IMG/VR virus record: IMGVR_UViG_3300019890_000003
Location: 13,682-77,681 of that record
Length of the DNA stretch: 64,000 nt
From: a virus
Strand: one strand, 5' to 3'
The notes below the pieces were generated by a model that searched no databases, had not been told where the DNA came from, and worked only from the letters and a program-made list of their open reading frames with translations. The position numbers were made by a program, and so were the translations under genes. This document shows, in pieces, positions 1 through 43,968 of this stretch. Each line of letters starts with the position of its first letter. The stretch's first letter is position 1.

Positions 1-3000
1 CAGCAATCCTAATAACCGCATCTTTATCGGCGCAAAGAACAATGATGTTGGTTTCGGTGCGGGTGCATTCAGTGTTGTCTATATATGATAGCGGATCGAA
101 TCTTACGGTTATAAACGGATTGAAGAATGGAACGCCGGTTACTGGAATAGGATAAAACGGAACGCGCTGCGGAACAATGAACCTGTCCCGATAGCGGCTA
201 TCGGCGAACGGCGCTCCGAGTAGAGATTGAACCTTCCCTTGGATTACCGTCGGTAGGAATGAGCTTGCCGGGTATTTTGTTGTGTCGCGATAGCTTTTAT
301 CGGCGAACGGAACGCCGAGCGCCCGCTGAACCGGCGGCTGAATAAGCCGTGGCAGGAACGGGTGCGGCGGATATTCAGAGGTATCCCGATATTTCCCGTC
401 GCTGAACGGAACACCGAGTTGGGACTGAACCTTGCCCTGGATTACGCCAGGGAGGAACGCATTCTTTAGACCGGCGGCAGTATCGAAATAGCCCTTGACG
501 TCGAACTTGACAACCGGGAATGGATTGAAGAACGGCGTCTGAACCACCGCTGGCGCAGGGAATAGACCCTGGTTGAGCGGATAGACGTAGCTGTCGCGGT
601 ACGCTTTGGCATTGAACAGTACGACATTCTCAATGAGATTTAAGAACGTCGAGGCCGGCGTTTGAATTATGGATGGAAGAAACGCATTATCGCCGACGTT
701 GGTCGGATCGCGAAATGCGAGTGCGTTAAACGGTGCGCCAAGCAGCGACTGGACCAACGGGAACGTTGTTGGTGGCGGATAGAGTTCGGTGTTCCTCGGA
801 TAGACGTATGTGTCCCGATACGTAGCCGAGTTAAACGGGGCGGCGTTCTCGACGAAATTCAGGAACGTCGATGTTGGCGTCTGAATGATATTCGGAAGGA
901 ATGCGTTGTCGCCGAAGTTAGCTAGATCACGGTATCCTAGCGCGTTAAACGGCGCCCCTAGATAAGCCTGAACCTTTCCTTGGATTGTAAACGGAAGGAA
1001 TGCGTTGGAGTCGAAACCCCTATCACGGTAGCTCTGCGTGCTGAAGACTGCCGGAAGAGCTTGCCCAAAGAACGGCGAGAAGACAACAGCCTGATATAAA
1101 TTATCGTTTACAGAGGTGGCGGACGAATCTCTGTAGCTTAAGGTATTGAATGGTATGGGCGGCGGTGGCGGTCCAATTAACGCGCCAACTGGCTCGCCAA
1201 TCGACGGTAAGAATGTAGCGTAAAGACTTCTGGATTCGTTTGCAACAAACGTCGGCGATAGATACGGATTTGGGAGCGCGAGATCGCCTCCCGCGTCATT
1301 GTAGACAGTTTCTGAGCTTGGATCAGCCCGAACAGTATCCGAATTAACTACGCTGAGGTACGCAAGCCAAACAACCTGCCCCGCGACAAACAACGGATTC
1401 GCGGTCGTGTTGATTGTATTCCAGGCGTCGTGGCTAGGGCCTCCTGTTGCCTGCGCTAGAAGACTGCCCGGCTTACCGGCTACGTCGGAATAAACAGCCA
1501 GGGATAGGGTTGAATTGCGGCCGGTTGAACAATTAACCGATATAGACTCGATTGTCCCAGAATTCGGCACGATATACGGGCCGTTCGCTACCGTAACCCC
1601 GACCAGGTTGTAAAGGGAACCTATTGAGGTAGTAGTATACCCTAGCTCAAACCCACGCGGCAAAAACGCGTTGAAGGTCTGATAGCCTAGCGGGTCGCGA
1701 TAGCTGACGTTATTGAACGGAACGGACGCAATCGGATTGAAGAACGGCGAGACAGTTGCTACCGGGAATAGACTCGGGTTCTCGCCACCGAGCGAATAAT
1801 CCCGATAATTTAGGCCGTTGAACGAAACTCCTAATAAGGACTGTACCGGATTCTGAATTGTGGCCGGCAAGAACGCATTAGCGTCAAACAGGCTATCTCG
1901 GTAGTTCAGCCCATTGAACGGCGCGCCAAGTTGAGATTGAATCTCTCCTTGAATAATGCTCGGCAGAAATGCGTTCGGGCTCGGATCAAAATTAGCCGGA
2001 TCACGATAGTTCAGGCCGCTAAACGGAAGAGGCGGCAGCGGGCTGAAGAATGGCGAACCTACTGGAGCCGGGAAGAGGCTTGGATTCCTAGTCCAAGTCG
2101 AAGAATCTCGATAGCTAAGGCTGTTGAACGGAACTCCCAGCAACGATTGCGCTGGGTTCTGGATCGTCTGCGGCAGGAACGCATTGGGACTTGGATCGAA
2201 ATTAGCTGGGTCGCGATAGCTCAGGCTGTTGAACGGCGCGCCGAGCAACGGCAGAATCGGGAATTGCAGTACCCGAGGAAGAAACGCGCTCCCATCAAAG
2301 AAACTGTCGCGGTAGTTAAGCCCGTTGAATGGTCCGCCGGTAAGGGACTGAATCTCTCCCTGAATGATGGACGGAAGAAATGCGTTGAATGTCTCATAAC
2401 CAAGCGTGTCGAGATACGTCTTGGCGTCGAACTTGGAAACATTCTCAATGAAATTGAGGAATGTCTCGACCGGCGTTTGTATGACGCTCGGCAGAAACGC
2501 GTTTTCGCCGAAATTGCTCGGATCGGCGTATTTCTGCGAACTAAACTGTGCCGCCGTCGCCGGATTGAAAAACGGCGTCGCAGCCGGCGGTGTGCTATAA
2601 AGGCTTAGATTTACCGGCGGTATGAAATAGTCGCGATAGCCAGCGCCGCCAGTGTAGCCAGCGACGTTTAAATCGGCGCTTTCTACGGCCGTCCCGCCAC
2701 CGGCTGGCACATACGTGATAACGATAAGGCCTGCGCCGCCGACGCCACCGGTGCCTGCTGTCGATGATGACCAACCACCGCCACCGCCGCCACCGCCATA
2801 AAGGCCGCCAGCTCCGCCATTACCAGCAGCGCTAGTGTCTGGGCTATTGCGCCCGCCACCGCCGCCACCGCCTCCACCAGAGCCTTTGGTGCCGTCTCCG
2901 ACGTCTAGGCCATTGCCACCCGCACCGCCGTTGCCAGCGACCGCTGCGCCATTGGTCGAGCCACCACCACCGCCACCAGATCCATTCGATCCTGTGCCGC

Positions 3001-3643
3001 CATTTACACCGGCACCGCCTCCTGAGCCGCCCGCCGTCGAGTCAACCGCCGCGCCACCTGGAGCCCCAGTGAACTGATCTACAAGCGGCGTGCCGCCTGT
3101 AGAGCCGCCGCCATTACCGCCGCCGCCGCCGCCGCCATTCTGGCTGAAGCCTGTACTCGCCCCTGAACTGCCGCCAGCCTTCCCAGCGCCGCCGGGGCCG
3201 CCAGCACCACCACCTGCCGATGCGCCGTTAACAGTGTTAGCTTCCGCGCCGCCGTTACCGCCATTGACGGCCGTGCCGATCGAGCCGGATGCAAGGCCGC
3301 CTGGGCCGAATGTCGCCCCAGTAGCGCCGCCGCCCGCTTTCGCGCCGCAGCTCGAGCCGCCGAGAGTCGTGCCGTTAAACCAAGTGTCGCCGCCAGTGGT
3401 GCCGATAGCGCCGCCGACGCCGACCGTATAAGTGGCCGTGCCACCAGGCGTTAGGTTGACATTGGCGATCTTGGAATATGCGCCACCACCGCCGCCAGCA
3501 CCTGTGGTATTGGTGCCTACAACACCGCTAGCCCCGCCGCCTCCAGCACCGACCGTCTCAACGCTATTGTTTAAAATATTGAAATCGGTCGGAACATTGA
3601 ATGTCGCGAGCGAGCCCGACGTCAGATAAATGACTACCGCCAT
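1..3643 (-). CDS. Large repeat protein (>1214 aa, 3' end outside window): Gly-rich domain, ~21 F-x4-YRD repeats, inserted beta-sandwich domain; putative fibre scaffold
   Basis: Hand translation from ATG 3643 (MAVVIYLTSGSLATFNVP...). Frame stays open to position 2 (...IIVLCADKDAVIRIA), which is why the ORF track omits it. Gly-rich part ends GGVGGAGLIVITY near 2710. Confidence 0.9.
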   Translation of the reverse strand, partial: MAVVIYLTSGSLATFNVPTDFNILNNSVETVGAGGGGASGVVGTNTTGAGGGGGAYSKIANVNLTPGGTATYTVGVGGAIGTTGGDTWFNGTTLGGSSCGAKAGGGATGATFGPGGLASGSIGTAVNGGNGGAEANTVNGASAGGGAGGPGGAGKAGGSSGASTGFSQNGGGGGGGNGGGSTGGTPLVDQFTGAPGGAAVDSTAGGSGGGAGVNGGTGSNGSGGGGGGSTNGAAVAGNGGAGGNGLDVGDGTKGSGGGGGGGGGRNSPDTSAAGNGGAGGLYGGGGGGGGWSSSTAGTGGVGGAGLIVITYVPAGGGTAVESADLNVAGYTGGAGYRDYFIPPVNLSLYSTPPAATPFFNPATAAQFSSQKYADPSNFGENAFLPSVIQTPVETFLNFIENVSKFDAKTYLDTLGYETFNAFLPSIIQGEIQSLTGGPFNGLNYRDSFFDGSAFLPRVLQFPILPLLGAPFNSLSYRDPANFDPSPNAFLPQTIQNPAQSLLGVPFNSLSYRDSSTWTRNPSLFPAPVGSPFFSPLPPLPFSGLNYRDPANFDPSPNAFLPSIIQGEIQSQLGAPFNGLNYRDSLFDANAFLPATIQNPVQSLLGVSFNGLNYRDYSLGGENPSLFPVATVSPFFNPIASVPFNNVSYRDPLGYQTFNAFLPRGFELGYTTTSIGSLYNLVGVTVANGPYIVPNSGTIESISVNCSTGRNSTLSLAVYSDVAGKPGSLLAQATGGPSHDAWNTINTTANPLFVAGQVVWLAYLSVVNSDTVRADPSSETVYNDAGGDLALPNPYLSPTFVANESRSLYATFLPSIGEPVGALIGPPPPPIPFNTLSYRDSSATSVNDNLYQAVVFSPFFGQALPAVFSTQSYRDRGFDSNAFLPFTIQGKVQAYLGAPFNALGYRDLANFGDNAFLPNIIQTPTSTFLNFVENAAPFNSATYRDTYVYPRNTELYPPPTTFPLVQSLLGAPFNALAFRDPTNVGDNAFLPSIIQTPASTFLNLIENVVLFNAKAYRDSYVYPLNQGLFPAPAVVQTPFFNPFPVVKFDVKGYFDTAAGLKNAFLPGVIQGKVQSQLGVPFSDGKYRDTSEYPPHPFLPRLIQPPVQRALGVPFADKSYRDTTKYPASSFLPTVIQGKVQSLLGAPFADSRYRDRFIVPQRVPFYPIPVTGVPFFNPFITVRFDPLSYIDNTECTRTETNIIVLCADKDAVIRIA
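80..2650 (-). repeat. Coding tandem repeat of ~32-36 aa, consensus PFNxLxYRDxxxxxxNAFLPxxIQxxVQSxLGA
   Basis: 10 units at ~2650-1660 and 11 units at ~1160-80, separated by a non-repeat domain. Conserved at protein level, degenerate at DNA level. Confidence 0.9.
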
Positions 3644-3691
3644 GGCGACCCTAATGGTATGTCGCCTTAGGCGTCGTATGTTAGCCGCTGG

Positions 3692-4204
3692 CTATGGTAG
3701 CACCTTCAATATCCACGTATTGATAAACGGCGTAATTCCAGGAGGAGGAGATAGGATCGCATTGTTGTAATCGGCACTGTCACGGTAACTCATACTGTTA
3801 AACGGCGCCCCGAGTTGCGACTGCACTTTCCCCTGAATTAGCTTCGGCAGGAACGCGCTACCGTCAAAGAAGCTATCACGATACGTGAACGCATTGAATG
3901 GCGCCGGAATAAACGGATTAGAAAATGGCGCCAGCGTGGCGCCAAGGTATTGAATTACGCCGATCGCATCCGCGAGTTCCATCGCGGTTGTGGGTAGAGT
4001 CGGCAAAAGGCCGTTGTCGCTCCAGCTATTTCTATCCTGGTAGCTTAAACTCTGAAACGGAATTATGGGGGTTAGACCAAAAAACGGTTTCGCAGCAGCG
4101 GCCGGAGGATATAAGCTTTTGTTTAGCGGGAGATCCGCAGGATCGAGATAATTATGGCCATCAAACTTCGGCGGTCTGTTAAGAGATGTGCCGTATCGCG
4201 CCAT
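3692..4204 (-). CDS. Short YRD-repeat protein (4 units)
   Basis: FDGHNYLD, FQSLSYQD, FNAFTYRDSFFDGSAFLPKLIQGKVQSQLGAP, FNSMSYRD: same repeat as 1..3643. Confidence 0.85.
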   Translation of the reverse strand: MARYGTSLNRPPKFDGHNYLDPADLPLNKSLYPPAAAAKPFFGLTPIIPFQSLSYQDRNSWSDNGLLPTLPTTAMELADAIGVIQYLGATLAPFSNPFIPAPFNAFTYRDSFFDGSAFLPKLIQGKVQSQLGAPFNSMSYRDSADYNNAILSPPPGITPFINTWILKVLP

Positions 4205-4228
4205 GAAGCCGGACCTCTCGGCTTATCC

Positions 4229-5044
4229 CTACAGCCATGCGTTTACGAATGGGTCCACAGCAGCCGGTGGAAGAAACGTCTGCAGATCGAACGCAGGTGA
4301 TGCGAAGATGCCGTACGGATCAGACTCCAGAAGCACAGCGTCTTGTTGGGTAAGCGCATGATCCCAAAAATAGATCGCCATCATCGCCGTGTCTGGCATG
4401 GCCTGGATCTCTAATGCGGCGGTTGATTGCGTACCGGCACCAGCAGAAACCCCCGTCGACGTCAGATATGATGCAGCATCCACCCAGACATTGCTGGTCA
4501 GTGGATTAATCTTAAGGGAGGCCAAAACACCATGAATTCCATTGCTTACTGCTGCGCCAGGACCGACAGTGGAGAACGCACCATAATAAAGGCAATGTAG
4601 GTTGCTGTTAGCTGAAGACGTGAGCGGCCCGAAGCCGATGGGGCTAGCAGTGTTCGCGGCGTCACGCACGAACATCATGCCGTTGGCGCTGGCAGTCGAG
4701 ACGCCTATCTGGCGATAACGTATATAGAACGATATTTGTGGGGTCCACGCCACGATGCGCGGTGAGAGCGCGCCAGCCGCCGTGCATAAGCCATACCCGG
4801 TGTTAACCGCAGTACCAATTACCGGCCCTTCCTGAGTGACAGCCGGTATCCCTGTGCAGGCGGCACCAGCATTTTGAACATCTACATAGAGAAAAGGCTT
4901 ATTGATGCCGGTATAATCCACCCAGGATATCCCAGGAAGATATGCACCAATCAGTCCATCCGCCAGCGGGTGAGTCCGGTTAATCGAAAGACTCGCCGGA
5001 CGCGGAACCTGTTTCAGGCGTTGTCGCAACAGCTTGATAGGCAT
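4229..5044 (-). CDS. LamG/concanavalin-A-like domain protein
   Basis: HPLADGLIGAYL start, VWVDA strand and IYFWDHALTQQDAVLLESDPY end resemble phage LamG-like proteins. No signal peptide. Confidence 0.6.
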   Translation of the reverse strand: MPIKLLRQRLKQVPRPASLSINRTHPLADGLIGAYLPGISWVDYTGINKPFLYVDVQNAGAACTGIPAVTQEGPVIGTAVNTGYGLCTAAGALSPRIVAWTPQISFYIRYRQIGVSTASANGMMFVRDAANTASPIGFGPLTSSANSNLHCLYYGAFSTVGPGAAVSNGIHGVLASLKINPLTSNVWVDAASYLTSTGVSAGAGTQSTAALEIQAMPDTAMMAIYFWDHALTQQDAVLLESDPYGIFASPAFDLQTFLPPAAVDPFVNAWL

Positions 5045-5051
5045 ATGCGCG

Positions 5052-5528
5052 CTATGTCATGCTTATGTTGTAGGTGCGATAGCTAGATGTATTGCCTGAC
5101 GCCGGCGTCGAGTTAGTACCTGTCCCGTTGAAAATAACAAACTTAAAAGAGCCAGGCGGTATGACAATTTGAGTTAGAGAGCCATTTGTCGCTGTCGTGG
5201 TCACTACTGGTAAAGCGATACTACCGACCGAATAGTTAGAGGCTGGCGGCCCGGCCGCAGCCGTGGCGAACCGGCCATCACCATATGTCGAGCCATCTTG
5301 GTTAAGCGGGTAGAGATAAACCCCCAAGAAGGGCGCACCAGTTGTCGTCATCGCCGCAATATGAACAGAGAAATCGCAGAACATATCAAGTGCCGTGCCG
5401 TTGGTGATGACGACAGAGCTAGCTATGGCGTCATTAATCGGAAGCGCCGTGGTAGTGAATTCCGTTCCGAACGCCGCCGTCCACGTTAGGCCTACGCCAC
5501 TGCCAGCGATCCAGTGTGAAGCTGTCAT
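5052..5528 (-). CDS. Small beta-rich putative virion structural protein
   Basis: 158 aa, Thr/Ala/Gly-rich, in operon. Confidence 0.6.
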   Translation of the reverse strand: MTASHWIAGSGVGLTWTAAFGTEFTTTALPINDAIASSVVITNGTALDMFCDFSVHIAAMTTTGAPFLGVYLYPLNQDGSTYGDGRFATAAAGPPASNYSVGSIALPVVTTTATNGSLTQIVIPPGSFKFVIFNGTGTNSTPASGNTSSYRTYNISMT

Positions 5529-5636
5529 TTTCTTTCTAGCCTGCTATTCCACGTTGACGAACGGGTTGTTTGACGGCGCGAAATCAGTGGTGAATGCCGC
5601 GCTTGCTCCCAACCAGCTAATAGAGGCAGAAGTGCA

Positions 5637-6683
5637 TCATGGCGGGCCATAGAAGCTAACACTGCTTGCTTGGATGGCATTGTCGATAGCGTCAGCCGTT
5701 TGCGACGCTACGATGTAGCCCTCATAAAAGGCGCCTGGAGAAGCATTACTTCCATCGCCGCCCTGCATCATAGCGATCCCCCCTTCAAGAAGCAGCGGGG
5801 TATGATCGCCTGGCAAAGCCACATTGTTATTCCAGGTTATTAAAGCCCCGGTTTGCGCATGTCCAGTTTTTCCTGTCCATACGGTTGCCCCATCTGTCTT
5901 CGCAATACCATTTTCGATAGTCGCACCCGCATAGCCGGTGCCAGACAAAAATAGGCCGCCATTCTCGATATCAATCGACTGCAATGGATTTGGATTTCCC
6001 CCCAGACCCAAGGCGAACATGTGACCGTTGCCGTTATCGGAATAAGTACTCTCGCCCTCGCCAAAATCAAAGCAGCAGTTGTTGACCGAAAAGGTGCCGT
6101 TAATCGTCCAATATTCCGTCACAGGAACGCTAGCACCAGTGACTGGTGTGCCTGGCATTCCGCCATTGTTTGGATCGCCATTCCGTGTCCCAGTGCTATA
6201 ACCAACCGCTGGCCGCTGAGGTCCATCTAATGTGCCGTTAAGCTCCTTCTCGGCATTGAAAACTATTTTGCCATTGGTAAGAACAATCCTGCGAACAAGC
6301 GCAGAGCTTCCTGTCGCTCCAAACCCAGTATTGGCAATAAAATCGAGATGGCTAGGCCCTTGGTCATAGAGCTTGGACATAAAGCAGGTTGTAGACGTGC
6401 AGAACGTGTCATAAGCCGCGTGATCTACGATGCCGTTGATCATGCCAATATCGAGAGTCGTGCTATCACTAGCCCGCACCGCTTGAAACAACTTACCGGT
6501 GTAGCTGTGGCTAAGAGCACGATTCAACGAATAAGCCACCACCGCCGGCTTGTTCGCCAAAGCCAGAATATCCATCGGCCACTTGTTTGTTTTGCTACCA
6601 TACTGATGAGTCATAATCGTAGCATGCGCGCCAACGCCAAGAATGCAGACTAGCAATATTAGAAGAAGGCTTCGCAGCTTCAT
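5637..6683 (-). CDS. Signal-peptide GH54 (alpha-L-arabinofuranosidase B catalytic-domain-like) protein
   Basis: YSLNRAL, KLYDQ, NNCCFDFGEGE, GHM, DIENG and EGGIAMMQGGDGSNASPGAFYEG match GH54 motifs. Leader MKLRSLLLILLVCILGVGAHA. Confidence 0.8.
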   Translation of the reverse strand: MKLRSLLLILLVCILGVGAHATIMTHQYGSKTNKWPMDILALANKPAVVAYSLNRALSHSYTGKLFQAVRASDSTTLDIGMINGIVDHAAYDTFCTSTTCFMSKLYDQGPSHLDFIANTGFGATGSSALVRRIVLTNGKIVFNAEKELNGTLDGPQRPAVGYSTGTRNGDPNNGGMPGTPVTGASVPVTEYWTINGTFSVNNCCFDFGEGESTYSDNGNGHMFALGLGGNPNPLQSIDIENGGLFLSGTGYAGATIENGIAKTDGATVWTGKTGHAQTGALITWNNNVALPGDHTPLLLEGGIAMMQGGDGSNASPGAFYEGYIVASQTADAIDNAIQASSVSFYGPP

Positions 6684-7270
6684 AGGATTGTTGCTGCTTC
6701 AAGCGTCATATCTGAGGTAGAGCCTGGGGTATTGGTCGAGGCAGCCTTCCCTATGATGACCGCAAAAAGCGATCCTGACGCCCCAGAAATCGCTTTACCG
6801 ATATTGTCAAGATTATAGATCGTCATCGTGCCAAAATCGCTATTCGCCACCGCCAGAGGATAAATTCCAAGCAAATTGGCCATATCGGCGCCATTCCATG
6901 TTGGAGCGGCATGATCAGCATATGTGCCATTTGATGGGGAAGCCTTGAAGATGGCTACGTCGAATTGAAGCGTTTGAATGCTGGCCTTAAATTTCAAGGT
7001 CAGACTGATCAATTCTCCGTCGAATGTCGTCGCGTTCAGGATATTGGCGATCGTAATAATGCCGCCCCATACAAAGCCGGAGGTATACGAGCTGGCTGTA
7101 ATAGTGGGGGTGACGGACACATCCATGATCTGGCCAACCACAGGAACTTGTGCTTGGTCAGAAGCGATAACTACGGGGTGACTATTGGCACTTGTATTTG
7201 ATCCGCTATTTTGAAGTGTGTTGATCGTTTGCCCTGAACCGGGCGTGACGGTGACTGTTGGCAACGCCAT
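6680..7270 (-). CDS. Beta-rich putative structural protein
   Basis: 196 aa; SANSHPVVIASDQ fibre-like motif; ATGA overlap with the GH54 start. Confidence 0.6.
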   Translation of the reverse strand: MALPTVTVTPGSGQTINTLQNSGSNTSANSHPVVIASDQAQVPVVGQIMDVSVTPTITASSYTSGFVWGGIITIANILNATTFDGELISLTLKFKASIQTLQFDVAIFKASPSNGTYADHAAPTWNGADMANLLGIYPLAVANSDFGTMTIYNLDNIGKAISGASGSLFAVIIGKAASTNTPGSTSDMTLEAATIL

Positions 7271-7304
7271 GTTATATCACCGTCACCGCTAGCCACATCA
7301 TCCG

Positions 7305-7820
7305 TCAGATCGTCTCGTAAACGATATGTCCACCGATAAGGCCTGCTGTACTGCCGGTGAACCCTGATAGAGATGCGTCTCCATTCGGCCCGGTAACGCC
7401 GACAAGTTTGAAGTACTCACCTGGATCCATTGCCGTCCAGCGCACGATGCCACCAAACGCATTGAAGGTAAGATTCAACCTGCCAAGCGTCACGACGTTA
7501 GACCTGGTTGGCTGCGTCGTTGCCGCAATATATCCTACAGCCGGCAACGCTAGTGCAGCGGCTGCTGGATCCATAGGACCATTCGATGACGTACCCGCAG
7601 CCAGAGCGGTAGGCGTGGCGCCAGCGGTCGAATCGCGCGACAAAACCATATACTGCGGCGCAGACGAAGTGGCTTGGCCGCCCATGTACACTTCGCTGAT
7701 GTCGTTACGCTGAGTGGCAGAGCCGCCACCAAGAGCCATATATGTACCGGTCGTTAGAACCGCGTTGTCGGCTGTCGCGGCAGTCGTGAAGCTGTTGGTG
7801 GAAAACGAATACTTGGTCAT
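7305..7820 (-). CDS. Small beta-rich putative structural subunit
   Basis: 171 aa, Ala/Thr/Gly-rich, no Cys, AAGGGG RBS-like sequence upstream. Confidence 0.65.
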   Translation of the reverse strand: MTKYSFSTNSFTTAATADNAVLTTGTYMALGGGSATQRNDISEVYMGGQATSSAPQYMVLSRDSTAGATPTALAAGTSSNGPMDPAAAALALPAVGYIAATTQPTRSNVVTLGRLNLTFNAFGGIVRWTAMDPGEYFKLVGVTGPNGDASLSGFTGSTAGLIGGHIVYETI

Positions 7821-7826
7821 AGCCCC

Positions 7827-8192
7827 TTATCCTTTTAGAAGCGGTGAGACAGACGTTAAGTTCGGGAGCGGGTTATATCCCGCCTCTTTTCTGAACGCCT
7901 GCTCTTGAAGGTGATCAAGCGTCTTAACAAAGGGAGTACATTCAGCGTGGCATGAAGGCTTGTCGCAGATGAACCGATCGCACTTCCGGCAATGGCCACG
8001 GGCTCGAACCCTGTACGGATTCATAATCACGACATCGTCGCAATGAGCGCAGGTTTGTGTAGGCGCCTCTAACACCTTGCCCTCTGGCACCGCCATGGTT
8101 GGATCGAGGCCAACGGCGAATAGCTCATCAGCGGTTATCCCTGGACTCGCGCGGTGATCGACGAGCAGGTGTCCTTCTTTTCTGCGCATCAT
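7827..8192 (-). CDS. Cys-rich putative Zn-binding protein
   Basis: CAHC...CRKCDRFICDKPSCHAEC. Confidence 0.65.
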   Translation of the reverse strand: MMRRKEGHLLVDHRASPGITADELFAVGLDPTMAVPEGKVLEAPTQTCAHCDDVVIMNPYRVRARGHCRKCDRFICDKPSCHAECTPFVKTLDHLQEQAFRKEAGYNPLPNLTSVSPLLKG

Positions 8193-8220
8193 TTCGCCAA
8201 ACCGTCACAGAGTGGTGATT

Positions 8221-8348
8221 AAAAAAGGTTGCCGATCGCAAATTTACCGACGAGGCGGATGGCGACTTAATCAGGCCGTTACTGGACGCAGGCGTTGCGG
8301 CGCCTTGCCCATACCTGAGGGGTACCAACCCGAAAATGCGATCGGCAA
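8221..8348 (-). other. 12-bp inverted repeat enclosing ~96 nt, followed by T6 on the minus strand (structured RNA or terminator candidate)
   Basis: TTGCCGATCGCA 8229-8240 / TGCGATCGGCAA 8337-8348; A6 at 8221-8226. Confidence 0.5.
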
Positions 8349-8349
8349 T

Positions 8350-9759
8350 TCAGTGCCACACACCGACCCAATCGACGAATAGGTCGTACTTCCCAGATGG
8401 AGGCGGGAGCGAAACCCACCCACCGCCGGATGCAAGCTCCAGCATCGGCGCCCATAGCGGCTTCACTGCGGAATTAGGGGAGCTGTATTGCGGAAATGAA
8501 TCGCATTTCAGCTGCACCTCGTCGAAATATTCACAGACAGTGCCGGTTGCGCTGCCAGAATTCGAAATCTTCATCCCGACAGTGTGCCAATCCCAGGTGA
8601 GATCCGCGCCCGACCCAAGAGGATACCCGGCATACCCGCCATTGGGGCTAGCTGGAAAGAACGCTGGCGCATATGCGTGCGTAAATGCCTGGTGATAATG
8701 GATGTCATTCCCGAACATTTCGGTCATGTCCATCTCCATGCCGCCATGAGTCTGATCGCTCAACTCAAGCATCCAGAAGGATGGCCACGTACCGCCTGAA
8801 CAGGTATTATCGCCTGGGACGTTACAGAAGGAGTTCGGGATCAGAATACGGGCGTCATAGTATCCGTCTGTTAGGCCAGGCGCAGAGGCTGATTTATCAG
8901 GATATCCTGTGCCGAGGATCCCACACCGTTGCTTACGGCCAAAGCCGTAGGGATCGACATAAGCAGGATCGAAAGTGTTGCGGATACGCAACCCGCCCTG
9001 TGGTAGAATGGTAAATGGATTGTACCCATTGACACTGTCGGTGTGCTCATTGGCGCAATCGCCGAAGTCTTGTCCGGTGAAGAGCCCTTCATACCATTTG
9101 AAACCATCAGATGCCGTTGGGGCAGTGCAGCTAGGCCACGTACCGGTGCCTGGCTTGCATGGTGTTGAGTTGAGCGTCGTGAAATGATCGCTGAAGGCGA
9201 GGGTCATTCCTGACGCTGGCGCAGGGGTTGGGATGGCAGGACGTGTGCCAGCTACAAAGAGCTTATACCTGCCCTGCAAATGGACTGTAGGACTACCGCC
9301 AGGCACGACATCGTAGGCATTGAATTCCACAGTGAGCGGGCCTGCTGGCTCGGCGGATAGGTCGAGCAGACCGGTGAACATGCTGCCTGAGCCTTGTGTA
9401 AGCCTCACGGCCATCGCACCATGCGTCCATACTTCGACATTGAGCGAGCCCAGCGCCTTGATAACGATCTGTTGCGGGCTGGCCGATACCGTCGCATTCG
9501 CGTCGGTGATGCCGAGATCCAACAAGGCTGGTGACGAAATCTGATTAGACGTCACGACATTGGGTGAGCAGGGTAAAATGATCCCCATCTGGTTGGTGGT
9601 GGCCGATGACGAGGAGCATGTTGGGACCGGCTGACAAAGCGGCACGGTGATCTGCGTATAGCCGCTAGAGCACTCGGCGTGCGCCTCAGGGAACGCGAAG
9701 AAATGAACATACCCCAGCGCTATGAGGAGGAATAAAACCGCGATGAAGTATTTCAGCAT
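8350..9759 (-). CDS. Signal-peptide GH16-like glycoside hydrolase
   Basis: Start reassigned to ATG 9759 (MLKYFIAVLFLL...AHA|ECSSGYT), overlapping the upstream stop. WPSFWML...EMDMTE matches the GH16 ExDxxE motif. Confidence 0.75.
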   Translation of the reverse strand: MLKYFIAVLFLLIALGYVHFFAFPEAHAECSSGYTQITVPLCQPVPTCSSSSATTNQMGIILPCSPNVVTSNQISSPALLDLGITDANATVSASPQQIVIKALGSLNVEVWTHGAMAVRLTQGSGSMFTGLLDLSAEPAGPLTVEFNAYDVVPGGSPTVHLQGRYKLFVAGTRPAIPTPAPASGMTLAFSDHFTTLNSTPCKPGTGTWPSCTAPTASDGFKWYEGLFTGQDFGDCANEHTDSVNGYNPFTILPQGGLRIRNTFDPAYVDPYGFGRKQRCGILGTGYPDKSASAPGLTDGYYDARILIPNSFCNVPGDNTCSGGTWPSFWMLELSDQTHGGMEMDMTEMFGNDIHYHQAFTHAYAPAFFPASPNGGYAGYPLGSGADLTWDWHTVGMKISNSGSATGTVCEYFDEVQLKCDSFPQYSSPNSAVKPLWAPMLELASGGGWVSLPPPSGKYDLFVDWVGVWH

Positions 9760-11408
9760 GTGTGCGGGCTCGATGGCGCCGTGCCAGTTTGGGGAATTAC
9801 GAAGCCAGGCGGTCCCCACGTCCGATCGAAGTCCGTGAAGCTCACTGGCGCGCTGAAGACTGGCGACGTCGGATCGATGACATACGACCAGCATGTCAAC
9901 TTCGGGTCTCCCGTGGTTGGGCTGGCATCGGTATAATTGCCGCCTGAGCTAAGCGTACCGCTCCCATAATTGTGATAGAAATTCGCCGTGATCGTCGGCG
10001 CGGTAGGCGGAGACCCACTCAGAATATTGTAGCCGCCACCGGCGGCGCCGCTGATGACGATGTTGTGCTCGACCTGATTGCCGTCCATGTTCGAATTAAC
10101 GGGGCATGTCGTGGTTTGAAACGCCACAATGCTCTGTCCGAGAGTCGATAGATCGATCAGGTTGTTGTTCACCCGAACGTTACGGCCGCCATGGAAGAGC
10201 ATGGCGGTATTCGAACCATTGCGCCCAGTGATAACATTCCCGGTCGCGAGGATGTCCGTGGCGCAGTCATCCGCATACATGGCCGAGCCGAAGCCCGAAC
10301 CGAGGGTGGCAAACGTGTTTGCGTCGCGGATGTAATTGTTGGTCCATTGGGCGCCGGTGCCGGTTTGCCTGGTGGCGTCGACTTGGTAGATCCCGCTACA
10401 ATCCGCCTGCGCGGTGCAGGTGTTCCAAATCGCCATGTGGTCGATGTGGGGATTGGTGAGGACGCTACCGCTGCCAGGGTTGGTTATGTTTATGCCCCAT
10501 GAATTGGTATCATGGATAACGCCATGCGAAATCGTCATGCCGACAGGACCGTAGAAGGATATTCCGCCTGGCGCTGAGAAGTTGGAGTTCGTGGCGTACT
10601 CGTTAAAGATGATGAAATCTTTGAGGATGACGTTCGTATCGCCGCCCGTCGAATGGAAGCCGCTGTGCTGGAAATCGTGCAGCGACAGGCCGTCGATCGT
10701 CACATTTGTGGTGTGATCGAAGTTGAAGATGAAATGCAGGCCGTTGCCGAAGGCCGTCGAGCCGCCCGTAAGGTCGGCGCTGTCATAGCCGTCCGGAGGA
10801 TAATAGGACCACGTCTCGCCACTATCGGCCGACGTGAGGGCTATCCCACAGGTAATGCCGGTGCCGCCGTCGCAATTCTGGACTGGCGTTGGGAAGCTGT
10901 AGCTGCCGGCGCGGATGTATGTGGTTAGGATCGTGCCGCTCGCGCGCATGGCCGCTTGGGCTTTGCTAAGCGTGGCGAATGGCGCAGCTAGAGTCCCAGC
11001 ATTGCTATCGCTGCCATTAGTGGCAACGTAGAACGCAGATGCCAAAGCTGGATTCACGGTCAAGGCAAGGGACGCCGTGCCTGTCCCGCCAGCGTTCGTC
11101 GCGCTCTCGGTCGTATTCGTGGTGCCGGTGACCGTGGGCGTGCCGGAAATAAGGCCGGTGCTGGTGTTGACTGACATGCCAACGGGCAGGGGCGATGCGC
11201 CCCAGCTCGTAGGGGTATTCGTGGCCGTGATCTGGAAACTGCACGAGGTGTTAACCGTGCAGCTTCCTGATGCCGGGCTCGTAATCACCGGCGCCGGCGT
11301 GCTGTTTAATTGGCACAACGGCACTGTGACCGCAGTGTATCCAGCCGCGCACTCGGCAAAGGCGGGGCCGGCTAGCGCAACAAGGAAGGCTGCGAGAATA
11401 CCTCTCAT
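9753..11408 (-). CDS. Signal-peptide protein: He_PIG-type Ig domain plus right-handed beta-helix (pectin-lyase-like fold)
   Basis: Start ATG 11408 (ATGA overlap). TGLISGTPT Ig motif; FYVATNGSDSNAGTLAAPFATLSKA; Asn-rich beta-helix coils. Confidence 0.8.
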   Translation of the reverse strand: MRGILAAFLVALAGPAFAECAAGYTAVTVPLCQLNSTPAPVITSPASGSCTVNTSCSFQITATNTPTSWGASPLPVGMSVNTSTGLISGTPTVTGTTNTTESATNAGGTGTASLALTVNPALASAFYVATNGSDSNAGTLAAPFATLSKAQAAMRASGTILTTYIRAGSYSFPTPVQNCDGGTGITCGIALTSADSGETWSYYPPDGYDSADLTGGSTAFGNGLHFIFNFDHTTNVTIDGLSLHDFQHSGFHSTGGDTNVILKDFIIFNEYATNSNFSAPGGISFYGPVGMTISHGVIHDTNSWGINITNPGSGSVLTNPHIDHMAIWNTCTAQADCSGIYQVDATRQTGTGAQWTNNYIRDANTFATLGSGFGSAMYADDCATDILATGNVITGRNGSNTAMLFHGGRNVRVNNNLIDLSTLGQSIVAFQTTTCPVNSNMDGNQVEHNIVISGAAGGGYNILSGSPPTAPTITANFYHNYGSGTLSSGGNYTDASPTTGDPKLTCWSYVIDPTSPVFSAPVSFTDFDRTWGPPGFVIPQTGTAPSSPHTC

Positions 11409-12682
11409 CTGAATGTCACGCCAATGCAAGTCATGGCGCCAGAATTACCAGCCGTGAACGTTTGCGCTACGGGAGCTGACGCAGGCGCGTAATCTCCCCA
11501 TCTATAAAAATCAGCGATCCCGCTTCCGGCTGTTACAACATGCGACAGCGTTGCCGGTGACAATGCCGTTGGAGAGCCGAGATCGTTCATCCCGACATAG
11601 AATGCCCACTCTCCTGACTGCCATGTTTCGCTTATTGCCGGCACGACGCATGTCGTTCCATTTGACGTGTTTGCCTTACTCGATACTGCCTTAACCGCAA
11701 TCGACCCAGACGACGTTTTGTAATTCCTGATATTCCCGTCAATTGCCGCATAGGCCAGACCGGAACCAGGCATCGTTACCGTGTAAGATGCAGGCTCAGA
11801 ACTTGCAGTACGAGAAAAGAGTGCTGTCGTGAAGTTCCCATAAACTGGATCAAGTGCATTAGCTAGGCGGGCAACCACCGTCCACCCTGCCGGGGTGTTT
11901 GGCGTCTCGACAGGATCGGTTAAGGCCGTCTGCGAAGTGACGACCATAAACATTAAATCGCCATTGGCGACGCCAGCAGGCGTGCTCAATACGACGGACT
12001 GCGAAGCCGAAGCATTATATCCGCCGTCAGCGCCGAAGGAAATTGTGCCAGAGCCGGCCGCCGCGATGGTCAACGCCAGGTTTTGAGTTCCCGTCCCCGC
12101 CCCATTGGTTGCACTAAGGCCGACGGTGCTCGAACTAGCTGCCGTTGGCGTACCGGAGATAGTACCGGTCGAAGTGTTAATCCCGAGAGGAGCCGGAAGA
12201 TTGCTTGCGCCATAGCTGGTCGGCATATTGGTTGCGGTAATATGATATGTAAATCCAGTGCCCACCGTGCCAGACGCCGTGGTGGGGCTGTTGATAACCG
12301 GTGGCGAGCCAGCGGCGGCGATAGTCAGGGCCAGCGTCTCATTGCCGGTGCCCGTCCCATTCGTCGCGCCTAGCGTGACGTTGCCGCTAAAGGGGGCAGT
12401 GGGAGTGCCTGATATGAGACCGGTCCCCGTATTGACCCCAAGGGGTGATGGAAGCCCGGTAGCACTGTAGCTAGTGGGCGAATTGGTTGCGGTAATCTGG
12501 TAGCTGAAGGCCATCCCGGCGGTGCCGCTAGCGGTTGACGGACTAGTGACGACGGGCGCGCCAGTGGTGTTTTGCTGGCAGGCAAAGACGTTACTCAGCT
12601 GCGTGTAACCCGTAGCGCACTGGGCATTTGCTCCCACCGTAAGCGCGATAAGTGCCGTGAAAGCAATGGCTAAGGACTTCAT
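11405..12682 (-). CDS. Signal-peptide protein with two He_PIG-type Ig domains and a C-terminal beta-sandwich
   Basis: Two PVxxSPxTASGT...TGxISGTPT units. LSTPAGVANGDLM...TPAGWT...SEPASYT domain. Leader ends ANA. Confidence 0.8.
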   Translation of the reverse strand: MKSLAIAFTALIALTVGANAQCATGYTQLSNVFACQQNTTGAPVVTSPSTASGTAGMAFSYQITATNSPTSYSATGLPSPLGVNTGTGLISGTPTAPFSGNVTLGATNGTGTGNETLALTIAAAGSPPVINSPTTASGTVGTGFTYHITATNMPTSYGASNLPAPLGINTSTGTISGTPTAASSSTVGLSATNGAGTGTQNLALTIAAAGSGTISFGADGGYNASASQSVVLSTPAGVANGDLMFMVVTSQTALTDPVETPNTPAGWTVVARLANALDPVYGNFTTALFSRTASSEPASYTVTMPGSGLAYAAIDGNIRNYKTSSGSIAVKAVSSKANTSNGTTCVVPAISETWQSGEWAFYVGMNDLGSPTALSPATLSHVVTAGSGIADFYRWGDYAPASAPVAQTFTAGNSGAMTCIGVTFR

Positions 12683-12716
12683 TGTGTAGATCCTTTGAGT
12701 AAACCGGAATTAGTAC

Positions 12717-12745
12717 TTGACTATCGAGGGCAAATGCCTTAGGTT
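12717..12745 (+). promoter_or_regulatory. Sigma70-like promoter with palindromic operator in the spacer
   Basis: TTGACT-17-TAGGTT; AGGGCAAATGCCTT at 12727-12740. Confidence 0.7.
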
Positions 12746-12827
12746 AGCATGAAGGCGGGGAAGCAGAGTCAACGAGGGCGGTTGCCGCCCCAAACACTCA
12801 GCCCCGTCGACAATTGGAGAAACGGAG

Positions 12828-13031
12828 ATGACTTTTCTTGAAACCCTCGAACCGCTTGTGCACGCGGCAGAGCGATATGCACAACTAACTGAAATCCGCG
12901 AACAGCGCGGCGCGGGAGATTTCGTCGAGAAAGATTCCGGCAAGCGTATAACTTTATGGACGGCTCAAAAAGAGGCAGCCGATGCGCTTTGTGCCGCTGC
13001 TATCGAATTCTCAAAATGGGGGAGGCAATGA
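12828..13031 (+). CDS. Hypothetical early protein
   Basis: GGAG RBS; ATGA overlap with next gene. Confidence 0.6.
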   Translation: MTFLETLEPLVHAAERYAQLTEIREQRGAGDFVEKDSGKRITLWTAQKEAADALCAAAIEFSKWGRQ

Positions 13032-13258
13032 CCCAATTTCATGAAGGCCAAGAGGTGGAAGTAGCGCCGTTATCCGAAATGTTTGGCGCGTGGCGCAAGG
13101 CAAAGATCGTTGAAGTTGATCAACGAGCCGTGCAAACCTCGCCGATAAAACATCTAGTCGAGTTCGCTGATGGTACGCGCGGCGTGTTCGATGCGGATCA
13201 CATCAGATCTCTTACCTACAGAGGTCTAACTGCCCGTAACACGACAGGCATTTACTGA
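13028..13258 (+). CDS. Small Tudor/SH3-like barrel protein
   Basis: GGAGG RBS; FHEGQEVEV...WRKAKIVEV...HLVEFADG. Confidence 0.55.
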   Translation: MTQFHEGQEVEVAPLSEMFGAWRKAKIVEVDQRAVQTSPIKHLVEFADGTRGVFDADHIRSLTYRGLTARNTTGIY

Positions 13259-13260
13259 GT

Positions 13261-13368
13261 TGACGTTTCGGCTTGCCGGGTTCTTAGCCTCGCCCGGCAA
13301 AGCGAAGCGCCAGAAACGGAGCCGCCCAAGACTGGGAGATTGCGCGGATAGTTTGCCCGCGACGCTTC
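13261..13368 (+). ncRNA. Candidate structured cis-RNA, copy 1 (partial copy 13747-13792; copy 3 at 14355-14442)
   Basis: TGACG[hairpin]GCGCCAGA in three intergenic gaps. GAAAYGGAGC and GCGCGGATA...TGCCCGCGACGCT shared by copies 1 and 3. Confidence 0.5.
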
Positions 13369-13470
13369 ACAACAAAGGCCGGACCGACGCGCCACGCGGA
13401 CAACGCATTAGCACCGCTAGCCGCAGCGCGCCGATCCGTAACTCAACGAAACTAGGAGATTAACAAGGAA

Positions 13471-13749
13471 ATGAAAACACGCGAACAAAAGTACGAAGCC
13501 ATTTGGGATCGGGCAATCATGCTCGACTCCAAAAACCAAACAGAGACATTCTTGGACCTTGCCAAATGGCTCAACAAGAATGGATTTCGTAACCAAGCGG
13601 GGAAGCCATATAGGCCAGTCCCGCGTGGTGTCGCTAAGGTTGTCGCCTCTGCATGGACATATGCAGCCGACAGGTTCGGAGAGAAGAAGGCGCTCCCGAT
13701 TGCAAATGCCTTCACTGGCTCAACCGGGGAATATTCTTGGACTGAGTGA
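13471..13749 (+). CDS. Small protein resembling the serine-recombinase 'recombinase' DNA-binding motif
   Basis: LAKWLNKNGFRNQAGKPY; AAGGA RBS. Confidence 0.5.
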   Translation: MKTREQKYEAIWDRAIMLDSKNQTETFLDLAKWLNKNGFRNQAGKPYRPVPRGVAKVVASAWTYAADRFGEKKALPIANAFTGSTGEYSWTE

Positions 13750-13876
13750 CGTTTCGGCCTGCCGCTTGTGGGCGGCAGAGCGAAGCGCCAGAGTTTCAAA
13801 ATCCGGCGGGCAATCTCCCTTGCGGATACAAGGCGGCGGAATCTTTGTCGCTTCACCTTAACCATAAGAGGAAATC

Positions 13877-14140
13877 ATGACAACCAAAACTAACGTACCA
13901 GCCGTACACCTAACCCCAAAGCAACAATCCGTCATGAACGGCGCGCTGAGGGACACGCTTCTCAGCGAGCGCGCCATTGCCCGTTTAGAGGCGGCTGCGG
14001 AGGCCGTACACGCCCAAGCCAATGGGGGACGGGGATTTCAGGCTGTCAGCTCAAAGGAGGGCTTCGCGGCCACTATTAAGCACGGCAAGACCCTAATCGA
14101 AATTCAGGGCGATAGCTTTGCTGTAAGGCAAACGGATTGA
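13877..14140 (+). CDS. Hypothetical protein
   Basis: GAGGA RBS, 87 aa. Confidence 0.6.
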   Translation: MTTKTNVPAVHLTPKQQSVMNGALRDTLLSERAIARLEAAAEAVHAQANGGRGFQAVSSKEGFAATIKHGKTLIEIQGDSFAVRQTD

Positions 14141-37775: not shown

Positions 37776-38141
37776 TCACTTAGTCCAGTAGCCATAGATA
37801 GGCTTGCCATTCAGGTATCCAAGAATGACTGGCGCTGATGGAGATCCAACCGCCATTGCAAATTGTCTCCTGGACATGCCGGCCACTGGTTTCGGCGGGA
37901 TCAGGACTGAACACACTTGCGAGGCCACCATGGTTATTTGCGCCGCCGTGGGGTTCACGAGCCCGTCATCAGCCAAGACCGTCTCAAGGGAGGCAACGGT
38001 AGGCACAGCCCCGCATGCCGTGTCTATGGCGTTCCCAAGCGCGTCTAGGACCGATGCTGGCGTCACCCCAGGGAAGTCAGCCTGGAGGGTGGCGCAACCG
38101 GTGAGCGCGAGAAGCGCGCAAGCGGCAATAAGATTTTTCAT
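37776..38141 (-). CDS. Lipoprotein in lysis region (spanin candidate)
   Basis: Lipobox LTGC after a hydrophobic leader. Confidence 0.6.
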   Translation of the reverse strand: MKNLIAACALLALTGCATLQADFPGVTPASVLDALGNAIDTACGAVPTVASLETVLADDGLVNPTAAQITMVASQVCSVLIPPKPVAGMSRRQFAMAVGSPSAPVILGYLNGKPIYGYWTK

Positions 38142-39484: not shown

Positions 39485-39554
39485 CGCCGCCTCGCTGTGA
39501 ACGCGCTGGTGACGGTGTCTTAGAGGGCTTTTGCCCGCGTTGTCAAGGGCATGC

Positions 39555-40716: not shown

Positions 40717-40721
40717 TGCGA

Positions 40722-41099: not shown

Positions 41100-41109
41100 C
41101 ACCACCGCC

Positions 41110-43629: not shown

Positions 43630-43644
43630 CGGCCTTCTCCAGGC

Positions 43645-43959: not shown

Positions 43960-43968
43960 GTTCAGGTC

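Follow-up and report, generated by a model that had tools for sequence, protein, structure and literature searches.

A candidate module of exported glycan-active proteins in a temperate soil phage

Phage glycanases are usually seen as depolymerases borne on the tail or else, when soil viromes are surveyed, as "auxiliary" genes of metabolism that are counted from annotations alone, and the locus described here raises the question of what a cluster of glycan-active proteins does for a phage when it is encoded apart from the tail genes. The locus lies in a window of 64,000 nucleotides, which is the whole stretch of DNA analysed, taken from the virus record IMGVR_UViG_3300019890_000003 (77.7 kb, rated 100% complete), and consists of seven co-oriented ORFs on the minus strand, from 12682 to 5637 (Table 1). 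A sequence-only reading had described one co-oriented block with overlapping start and stop codons, upstream of a repeat protein and far from the baseplate, which on a circular map would lead into the packaging and head genes. This layout was confirmed: stop and start codons overlap at three junctions (4 nt at 11405-11408, 7 nt at 9753-9759 and 4 nt at 6680-6683), the gene of a 1290-aa repeat protein lies downstream of the block, tail genes occupy 41-60 kb with about 30 kb between the block and the baseplate genes, and the circular map leads through approximately 5 kb of small ORFs to the terminase and portal genes. Four of the seven genes encode glycan proteins, all with export signals and paired cysteines, and the other three (121, 171 and 196 aa) gave no carbohydrate-active match in any search. 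The DNA of the block had no blastn match among 50,697 GenBank phage records.

Table 1. Coordinates of the block, its candidate control elements and its downstream neighbours in the window
Feature	Position	Strand	Description
Palindrome copy	12727-12740		14-bp palindrome AGGGCAWWTGCCCT with 1 mismatch; 45 nt upstream of the ATG of the first gene
gpA	11405-12682	-	425 aa; Sec signal peptide, Cys-loop leader, two He_PIG domains, C-terminal tandem beta-sandwich
gpB	9753-11408	-	551 aa; signal peptide, Cys-loop leader, single He_PIG domain, probable right-handed parallel beta-helix with a candidate PL9-type N-terminal cap
gpC	8350-9759	-	469 aa, 12 Cys; signal peptide, Cys-loop leader, conserved beta-rich N-domain, GH16 glycanase
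Intergenic gap	8193-8349	-	157 nt; 12-bp perfect long-range stem, ~95-nt loop, then CCUUUUUU
p121	7827-8192	-	Cys-rich small protein, no signal peptide; first of a conserved phage gene pair
p171	7305-7820	-	Eight-stranded jelly-roll, virus-only family, no signal peptide
p196	6680-7270	-	Virus-only family; stop codon overlaps the GH54 start codon (ATGA)
GH54 protein	5637-6683	-	348 aa; GH54-type alpha-L-arabinofuranosidase catalytic domain, signal peptide, no CBM42
p158 and p271	4229-5528 (p271 4229-5044)	-	Downstream neighbours, no signal peptides

Three carbohydrate-active folds had been proposed for the block, and profile searches back all of them (GH54, GH16 and a right-handed beta-helix). 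The GH54 protein matched PF09206 (E = 2.4e-45; 155.4 bits against a cut-off of 25), its residues 36-342 covering positions 1-310 of the 315 in the profile, and it matched the Aspergillus AbfB structures 6sxt and 1wd3 with E of about 2e-26. The catalytic domain aligns with AbfB over its full length, and both catalytic residues (nucleophile Glu and acid/base Asp) are kept, as are the positions of the vicinal and the FC...C disulfides: D238 and E240 stand in the nucleophile motif D-x-E-N, D310 in GGD-x-SN and the vicinal pair at C203-C204, with E240 (together with D238) and D310 falling in the catalytic columns of the alignment. In AkAbfB, E221 is the catalytic nucleophile and D297 the acid/base. 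Unlike AbfB, to which it is ~30% identical, the phage protein is phage-borne, begins with a bacterial signal peptide and is without CBM42 (there was no PF05270 match, and the chain stops 6 residues past the catalytic domain); its activity is predicted by homology. Canonical AbfB carries a C-terminal CBM42, which is a feature of the architecture and not of the catalytic family. The nearest GH54 relatives are 36-37% identical, none above 37% being within reach of a word-based search, and tblastn returned no match in the 50,697 GenBank phage records.

gpC gave no Pfam match by itself at E <= 0.1, but a profile built from 21 of its homologues matched 27 PDB sequences, almost all of them named GH16 enzymes, with laminarinases as the best match (E = 1.4e-13). 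PF00722 is carried by 9 of the 28 proteins listed, and the catalytic motif E342-x-D344-x-x-E347 of gpC corresponds to an ExDxxE that is invariant in the 21 sequences and in P0029, a signal-less protein of another phage. The closest relatives (P0002-P0008) are 56-84% identical to gpC. The NCBIfam model of the endo-1,3-1,4-beta-glycanase EglC (NF052454) was matched by 18 of the 21 family members (best E 2.8e-19), at scores far below its 700-bit equivalog cut-off (21.8 bits for gpC). By sequence, EglC, a rhizobial exopolysaccharide endoglycanase of the EglC/ExoK/ExsH type, is the nearest curated relative of gpC and not its orthologue. By tblastn, gpC was not similar to any of the 50,697 GenBank phage records, and single-protein scans of viral contigs returned nothing with either GH16 or GH54.

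gpB is predicted to be a beta-helix enzyme with a PL9-type cap: its match to PF22842 (22.3 bits, below the cut-off of 25.2) is limited to the cap, gpB matched PelN at E = 1.5e-10, and the family profile matched 9rx2, 5mqp and the PL9 structure 5olq, the last over only ~60 residues. Most of the full-length homologues listed at 40-55% identity carry PF13229 and/or PF22842, and some homologues have ricin or CBM domains. Ten other viral contigs contain beta-helix homologues; in the 50,697 GenBank phage records, tblastn found only a 48-residue match to the cap.

The sequence-only reading had also named Ig spacers and a LamG-like lectin. The spacers are present as He_PIG domains (PF05345, cut-off 24), two in gpA (E = 2.7e-15, 57 bits) and one in gpB (32.6 bits). 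The only candidate for the lectin within the block is gpA residues 207-425, an AlphaFold2-modelled tandem beta-sandwich (pLDDT 90.9), for which no LamG entry appeared among the matches listed. This C-domain instead resembles a phage "minor tail protein" type: of its 77 BFVD matches at E <= 0.001, which reach a TM of 0.75, many that have names are mycobacteriophage minor tail proteins. The best Z in structure comparison was 6.2, to unrelated beta-rich domains, Foldseek found nothing significant in the PDB, and no Pfam family was matched across 27 members. gpA also matched phrog_8763, a "tail protein" family, at E = 4.9e-21. No search makes gpA an enzyme, and we regard it as a predicted binding module.

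The idea of a dedicated glycan module stands as far as these profiles and catalytic residues go; the block itself, judged from its gene families, is a mosaic in which p121, p171 and p196 are conserved phage genes unrelated to the glycanases. None of these three middle genes has a signal peptide. p121, which probably binds zinc, matched no family in Pfam, PHROG or other profile searches, and its homologue lies directly upstream of a p171 homologue in all eight viral contigs (8/8). The atlas clusters of p171 are 88-92% viral; its AlphaFold2 model (pLDDT 73) has the HFTV1 turret protein as its best PDB match (Z 8.3), among generic jelly rolls, its BFVD matches are uncharacterised phage proteins throughout, and tblastn found nothing in the 50,697 GenBank phage records. 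The p196 clusters are 86-94% viral and have no Pfam family. We detected no relationship between p171 and p196, and no similarity between p196 and a 197-aa protein at the same position in contig L017. The gap between gpC and p121 divides the block, folds with an MFE of -55.7 kcal/mol (z -2.0) and ends in a U-run, and is a candidate terminator or sub-operon boundary. It had no Rfam match, nothing was found with Rfam over 3000-14000, and scans for promoter and terminator consensus sequences gave counts not above chance.

What sets the four glycan proteins apart is their N-termini. Signal peptides were identified by eye and with a simple heuristic; gpA, gpB, gpC and the GH54 protein have canonical Sec signal peptides with an n-h-c layout and AxA-type cleavage sites, and the mature chains have even numbers of cysteines. 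These features together suggest that the four proteins are exported and not assembled in the cytoplasm, and most likely act outside it as free enzymes, not as tail parts. Homologues from bacteria are secreted enzymes that stand alone, with ordinary chromosomal genes around them. Exactly at the predicted cleavage site, gpA, gpB, gpC and a fourth protein of this phage (40722-41099) carry a Cys-loop leader, [EQ]-C-x2-G-x(5-12)-C-[QV], which also occurs in three proteins of contig L010 and in two of L012 (three copies), but in only 11 of the 261 homologues collected. The leaders are alike as peptide and not as DNA, and their DNA identity of only ~52% rules out a recombination scar. A lipoprotein signal is likewise ruled out, the cysteine being at +2 after the AxA site with no lipobox.

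It is conceivable that these are ordinary tail-fibre or depolymerase genes whose products are assembled in the cytoplasm, the hydrophobic N-termini not being cleaved signal peptides. Phage depolymerases are usually virion-borne beta-helix proteins, and the He_PIG repeats match the PHROG "tail protein" family. However, the canonical n-h-c layout with AxA sites, the lack of a recognisable virion-anchor domain and the fact that the closest bacterial relatives belong to secreted monomeric enzyme families speak against such an arrangement, as do the conserved cysteine pairs that are missing from the signal-less form, and we consider it very unlikely. The last point comes from the GH16 family, where all 21 signal-peptide forms have C64, C201 and C211, and a phage subclade has three extra Cys pairs. 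In P0029, an 893-aa protein that passes the PF00722 cut-off and whose GH16 domain is encoded between gp25-like and Baseplate_J-like genes, only 2 cysteines are present, and F, V and G replace C64, C201 and C211. The GH16 family provides an internal evolutionary control, with cysteines kept alongside the signal peptide and missing in the baseplate-module form, and this contrast could serve as a sequence rule for telling exported from virion-borne phage CAZymes in metagenomes.

A further possibility is that the proteins are exported and nevertheless become parts of the virion, folding oxidatively in the periplasm and docking onto finished particles at lysis through the Cys-loop leader. The leader is conserved as a peptide on unrelated cargo domains, including in the cluster that follows the baseplate genes, and the gpA C-domain has a minor-tail-protein fold. 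A 388-aa protein with a signal peptide, encoded after the baseplate genes, shares homology with the distal part of a 562-aa protein that lacks a signal peptide and occupies the tail-fibre position in another phage, and in L010 the beta-helix gene clusters with homologues of the post-baseplate signal-peptide proteins. On the other hand, we found no docking partner, and in L010 and L011 another N-terminal segment, possibly a virion anchor, is common to a distinct class of proteins without signal peptides. To our knowledge, there is no precedent for tailed-phage parts that are added after Sec export. We rate this explanation as quite unlikely, and see only a slim chance that, in this phage and the scattered soil phages sharing the leader, some of the host-recognition apparatus is made outside the cytoplasm, as Sec-exported enzymes and fibre-like proteins that form disulfides in the periplasm and join the tail at lysis by the Cys-loop.

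The enzyme families are mainly bacterial, and the GC3 of gpB (0.72) is above that of most neighbours, as might be expected if the block were host DNA or an assembly chimera. This is extremely improbable, however, as phage genes flank the block on both sides in a record rated complete, ten other viral contigs have beta-helix homologues, and a relative that shares early-region genes with this phage has the GH16 gene in the same place. The promoter region of the block also contains a phage palindrome, which has 14 matches in the window (<=2 mismatches) against 0.9 expected, other copies being located upstream of the early, lysis and baseplate operons. The copy in front of gpA may serve as a regulatory site in the promoter of the block itself and, being common to other phage operons, points to phage-controlled expression. 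Sheath, baseplate, tape-measure, terminase, portal, integrase and RecT genes are all present, and there are no tRNA genes in the window. An argument for a diderm (two-membrane) host is a lipobox protein encoded ~0.9 kb from the lysozyme; searching bacterial genomes with the terminase gave only one partial match, in a proteobacterial MAG. The modules of the block recur in other phages with no match to the terminase of this phage, although the empty result for terminase in five module-sharing viral records is weak evidence.

The explanation that we prefer, and to which we give an even chance, is an accessory module of exported free enzymes that acts on envelope or matrix polysaccharide of the host. 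The module would belong to a temperate, contractile-tailed soil phage of a diderm host, and Sec would export a beta-glucanase-type GH16 endoglycanase, a beta-helix enzyme, a furanosidase-type GH54 enzyme and a binding protein made of Ig domains and a beta-sandwich. These proteins would form disulfide bonds while folding in the periplasm and, as free and stable enzymes, might then attack the host's own polysaccharide, cutting it either in transit or after release at lysis. With receptor or exopolysaccharide stripped, progeny phage would not be trapped and neighbouring cells would become accessible. p121, p171 and p196, interleaved and signal-less, are conserved phage genes that run in the same direction of transcription. 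A bacterial target is in keeping with published work: a periplasmic beta-helix lyase is able to degrade capsule during export (PMC6003464), and in the Sinorhizobium phages PhiM9 and PhiM12 the baseplate cluster is reported to encode ExsH-like GH16 glycanases, the PhiM12 homologue being abundant in the PhiM12 proteome (PMC4621102).

Several points count against an action of exported free enzymes on the host surface. The minor-tail fold of the gpA C-domain and the baseplate-adjacent signal-peptide proteins, whose homologues are true fibre parts elsewhere, are hints of virion association. GH54, laminarinase-type GH16 and PL9-like enzymes are, together, a textbook combination against the cell walls of plants and fungi, and Sec export by itself gets no further than the periplasm in a diderm cell. 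An alternative explanation is a nutritional role or lysogenic conversion, in which the prophage would give its host secreted enzymes for obtaining carbon from plant or fungal polysaccharides, the substrates being arabinan or arabinoxylan, beta-1,3-glucan and pectin. Such a role would agree with a temperate phage (integrase), with family activities typical of plant and fungal wall breakdown and with bacterial homologues that are stand-alone and secreted, some with ricin or CBM modules; moreover, CAZymes of soil prophages have been catalogued, 5% of them with signal peptides (PMC13507307). Yet the promoter region shares its palindrome with the lysis and baseplate operons, conserved phage genes stand among the glycan genes, and the latter come with no genes for transport or catabolism. 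In another phage, a baseplate-module protein contains a GH16 domain of the same family. A soil-virome study has also argued for a role of most viral CAZymes in core viral functions (bioRxiv 10.1101/2024.12.20.629349). We thus consider the nutritional role possible but unlikely. As to the targets suggested by the sequence-only reading, the bacterial ones (exopolysaccharide, biofilm) fare better than the plant and fungal glycans, because a GH16 domain occurs in a baseplate-module protein and EglC is the nearest curated relative.

Both CAZymes of soil viruses and GH16 glycanases of rhizobiophages have been described before. The GH16 proteins of PhiM9 (ORF 121) and PhiM12 are, like gpC, phage-encoded and laminarinase-type, are kin to host exopolysaccharide endoglycanases and have been proposed to cleave host EPS (PMC4621102); their genes lie within the baseplate and neck structural cluster, as the signal-less P0029 lies in a baseplate cluster, whereas gpC, with its Sec signal peptide and six Cys pairs, is encoded far from the tail genes. 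Virion-borne depolymerases (tailspikes and tail fibres) similarly direct beta-helix or glycanase domains, swapped as modules, against host surface polysaccharide, but they bind the particle through an N-terminal domain, lack a signal peptide and are encoded in the tail module, in contrast to the signal peptides, Cys-loop N-termini and separate gene block seen here. VexL of Burkholderiales is a Sec-exported right-handed beta-helix Vi-antigen lyase that degrades the cell's own capsule in the periplasm (PMC6003464); it is a bacterial capsule-assembly gene and not a phage gene, and we compare it with no claim of sequence relationship. Reports on soil viruses and prophages (PMC13507307; bioRxiv 10.1101/2024.12.20.629349) likewise include glycoside hydrolases such as GH16, a minority with signal peptides, but as catalogue-level single genes, whereas the present locus adds a co-oriented cluster whose products share a leader, along with cysteines gained and lost in step with export and a candidate regulated promoter. 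The locus also contributes an orphan GH54 of phage origin and a mobile leader peptide not described before, and it may represent a concrete third case, a phage-regulated battery of exported, disulfide-stabilised enzymes. If these enzymes cut host exopolysaccharide, they could become stable reagents for degrading the matrix of soil Alphaproteobacteria or Acidobacteriota.

Downstream of the block, p158 and p271 had no Pfam or PHROG match; a similar pair also lies upstream of a signal-peptide beta-helix gene in viral contig L019, with p158 39% identical to a 165-aa protein (E = 7e-18) and p271 weakly similar to the N-terminus of a 1402-aa protein (E = 0.003).

The glycanase block comprises seven ORFs, all co-oriented on the minus strand. 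When gene starts are placed at the ATG overlapping the preceding stop, the gaps between them are, in order, -4, -7, +157, +6, +34 and -4 nt; the overlapping start and stop codons described in the sequence-only reading are thus present at three of six junctions (4, 7 and 4 nt). Beyond the GH54 gene, the string runs on through p158, p271 and p170 to the 1290-aa repeat protein (gaps of 108, 7, 24 and 48 nt), and the tail genes lie at 41-60 kb, in agreement with the placement of the block upstream of the repeat protein and apart from the baseplate. Upstream of gpA the minus-strand run is broken by small plus-strand genes; therefore, transcription has to begin anew at about 12.7 kb. The window contains 14 copies of the palindrome AGGGCAWWTGCCCT versus 0.9 expected, one of them 45 nt upstream of gpA and others ahead of early, lysis and baseplate operons. 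As a candidate regulatory site common to the block and the phage operons, it ties the block, on sequence grounds, to the phage's own programme and not to an autonomous 'moron' promoter.

Coordinates of the block genes and other features in the window
Feature	Position	Strand	Remark
gpA	11405-12682	minus	425 aa
gpB, beta-helix protein	9753-11408	minus	551 aa
gpC, GH16 protein	8350-9759	minus	469 aa
structured intergenic gap	8193-8349	minus	157 nt; 12-bp perfect long-range inverted repeat
p121	7827-8192	minus	Cys-rich
p171	7305-7820	minus
p196	6680-7270	minus
GH54 protein	5637-6683	minus	348 aa
small genes diverging from the block	12828-13258	plus	one weakly Agenet/Tudor-like (E 4e-4)
lipobox protein	37776-38141		~0.9 kb from lysozyme gene
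lysozyme gene	39017-39670
four post-baseplate proteins	40000-45135	minus	signal peptides
small leader-bearing protein	40722-41099		post-baseplate cluster
small ORF(s), heuristic scan	51712-52262	plus	signal-peptide-like N-terminus

The repeat in the intergenic gap encloses a structured RNA of ~95 nt, followed by CCUUUUUU, a U-run (MFE -55.7, z -2.0); the element has no match in Rfam. It may split the block in two, and may be a terminator or processing site separating the leader-bearing genes from the remaining block. Three paralogues of the Agenet/Tudor-like gene lie upstream of a signal-peptide GH16 gene in IMGVR_UViG_3300020580_000001 (L003 5437-7060), a record without a detected match to this phage's terminase, so a small synteny is conserved.

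The source record, of which the window covers bases 13682-77681, is a 77,681-bp IMG/VR virus record with a completeness rating of 100%. Terminase, portal and head-morphogenesis genes occupy its first 8 kb on the minus strand, and PHROG matches place the sheath, two tape-measure-like genes, baseplate hub and wedge within the minus-strand tail region. The integrase and RecT at 29.5-32.6 kb mark the phage as temperate, and the lipobox protein near the lysozyme gene points to a diderm (two-membrane) host.

The GH54-like fold proposed earlier is borne out by a PF09206 match along the whole protein (E 2.4e-45) and by Aspergillus AbfB structures (E about 2e-26), with retention of the D-x-E-N nucleophile motif (D238, E240), the GGD-x-SN acid/base (D310), the vicinal C203-C204 and the FC...C pair; CBM42 is absent, and the closest relatives in a search of 5.8 billion proteins are just 36-37% identical. 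The gpC protein alone has no direct Pfam match; of the 28 homologues listed, 9 contain PF00722 and one, from a Methylocella MAG, is named GH16. Its GH16-like fold is nonetheless supported at the family level: a 21-sequence profile matches laminarinase structures (E 1.4e-13), and E342-x-D344-x-x-E347 is invariant in that alignment. The sole NCBIfam match of the family, the endo-1,3-1,4-beta-glycanase EglC (18/21 members), scores far below cut-off. No relatives of GH54, GH16 or p171 were detectable by tblastn in 50,697 GenBank phage records.

The gpB protein carries one He_PIG domain and a Pel9A-like cap scoring below threshold. Most of its many homologues (40-55% identity) contain PF13229 and/or PF22842, which ricin or CBM modules accompany in some, and its profile reaches into PL9 as well as other enzymes with a beta-helix; these matches support the beta-helix fold and fit more than one enzyme class. 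Two He_PIG domains in gpA, together with that in gpB, account for the predicted Ig spacers. They precede a C-terminal domain of 210 residues, mostly found by itself in proteins of about 220 aa and belonging to no Pfam family (27 members searched). The proposed LamG-like lectin found no support: the domain was modelled as a tandem beta-sandwich (pLDDT 91) with nothing convincing in the PDB (best Z 6.2), and predicted viral structures gave 77 matches (E <= 0.001), where minor tail proteins of mycobacteriophages account for many of those with a name. In a 497-aa homologue, P0164, the gpA-type beta-sandwich is fused to Pro/Phe-rich repeats resembling those of the 1290-aa repeat protein, linking two neighbouring gene products.

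All four glycan proteins (gpA, gpB, gpC and GH54) have predicted signal peptides, in which a basic residue at the N-terminus is followed by a hydrophobic core and a cleavage site of the AxA type. The first mature residues of gpA, gpB and gpC form a conserved loop, [EQ]-C-x2-G-x(5-12)-C-[QV]. This leader is also carried by the small post-baseplate protein, by three proteins encoded on the viral contig L010 and, in three copies, by two L012 proteins, and each time it sits precisely where cleavage is predicted; only 11 of 261 collected homologues have it, on cargo of the GH16, beta-helix and gpA types. Conservation is seen at the peptide level, the DNA of the leaders being only about 52% identical, which points to selection on the peptide and argues against a recent recombination scar.

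Other exported candidates were seen. For one of the four post-baseplate signal-peptide proteins, of 388 aa, the homologue in L002 is a 562-aa protein at the tail-fibre position that lacks a signal peptide; the homology covers the distal 350 residues of that protein. In this phage, the 210-aa gene ahead of the 388-aa gene has no signal peptide and overlaps its start. A heuristic scan also flags small ORFs with signal-peptide-like N-termini at window 51712-52262 and at G000:C1 10316-13141 (record coordinates; L005), and on this basis the exported proteome of the phage seems unusually large. Several signal-less proteins in phages of 46-48 kb (L010 1410-5725; L011 4976-9776) have a common N-terminal segment, NPYG.DNPLP.TGLP...FELT..FDS, which may be a common virion anchor of multiple receptor-binding proteins and differs from the signal-peptide/Cys-loop class of the same genomes.

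The cysteines of the GH16 family follow predicted export. C64, C201 and C211 are kept without exception in the 21 members with a signal peptide, and a phage subclade (P0001-P0008) has three additional Cys pairs. IMGVR_UViG_3300020580_000001 encodes both a 456-aa member with a signal peptide and P0029, a signal-less 893-aa protein whose gene is flanked by gp25-like and Baseplate_J-like genes, with two tape-measure-like genes upstream. P0029 scores above the PF00722 cut-off and retains ExDxxE, whereas the three invariant columns hold F, V and G, and just two Cys occur among its 893 residues. This contrast would be expected if folding takes place in an oxidising compartment for the signal-peptide forms and in the cytoplasm for the baseplate-module form. 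The position of P0029 also shows that the GH16 family is employed in phage tail modules, a sign that its target may lie on the host surface.

As a prediction, it is well supported that the block encodes CAZymes and a binding protein that are exported, disulfide-bonded and controlled by the phage. We favour the view that they act as free enzymes on host envelope or matrix polysaccharide, because the GH16 family is encoded in a baseplate gene cluster elsewhere, because the nearest curated GH16 relative is a rhizobial EPS endoglycanase, because rhizobiophage GH16 glycanases have been proposed to cut host EPS (PMC4621102), and because a periplasmic beta-helix lyase can strip capsule during export (PMC6003464). 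Nutritional use on plant or fungal glycans is a serious rival. Post-lysis docking of the exported proteins onto particles is an unusual possibility, compatible with the minor-tail type of fold in gpA and with the signal-peptide homologues of fibre proteins. One atlas lists 133 GH16 genes of soil viruses (bioRxiv 10.1101/2024.12.20.629349), signal peptides are reported in about 5% of soil prophage CAZymes (PMC13507307), and ExsH-like phage glycanases were described in 2015 (PMC4621102). What appears to be new is the clustering of the exported set, the leader in common, the gain and loss of cysteines in step with export, and GH54 on a phage.

The locus comparison fits the cassette swapping raised in the sequence-only reading, with block genes recurring in differing combinations. 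Beta-helix homologues occur on ten viral contigs; in L010-L012 the gene lies amid signal-peptide proteins homologous to the post-baseplate proteins of this phage and to an inserted domain of the repeat protein, and in L017 a signal-less version comes ahead of homologues of p121 and p171, close to the terminase on its upstream side. Genes from the early region of this phage recur in L037 at 65% and 54% identity; there, the GH16 gene follows a p176 homologue and one small ORF, with gpA and gpB absent. Such differing gene content marks the set as a variable cassette. This phage's terminase was matched in 0/5 tested records, an empty answer that is weak evidence by the tool's own warning. The GH16 homologues of Methylocella and Bryobacteraceae MAGs have ordinary chromosomal surroundings.

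The middle genes p121, p171 and p196 lack signal peptides and glycan-related matches. Both p171 and p196 belong to virus-only families, the p171 model is a generic jelly roll, and p121 adjoins p171 in all eight viral contigs found with p171. In small phage genomes (L025 2148-5520; L017 11339-15495), the pair is located either between the terminase and portal genes or shortly ahead of them, flanked by variable proteins of 200-570 aa; it may therefore be a conserved module beside a variable host-recognition gene.
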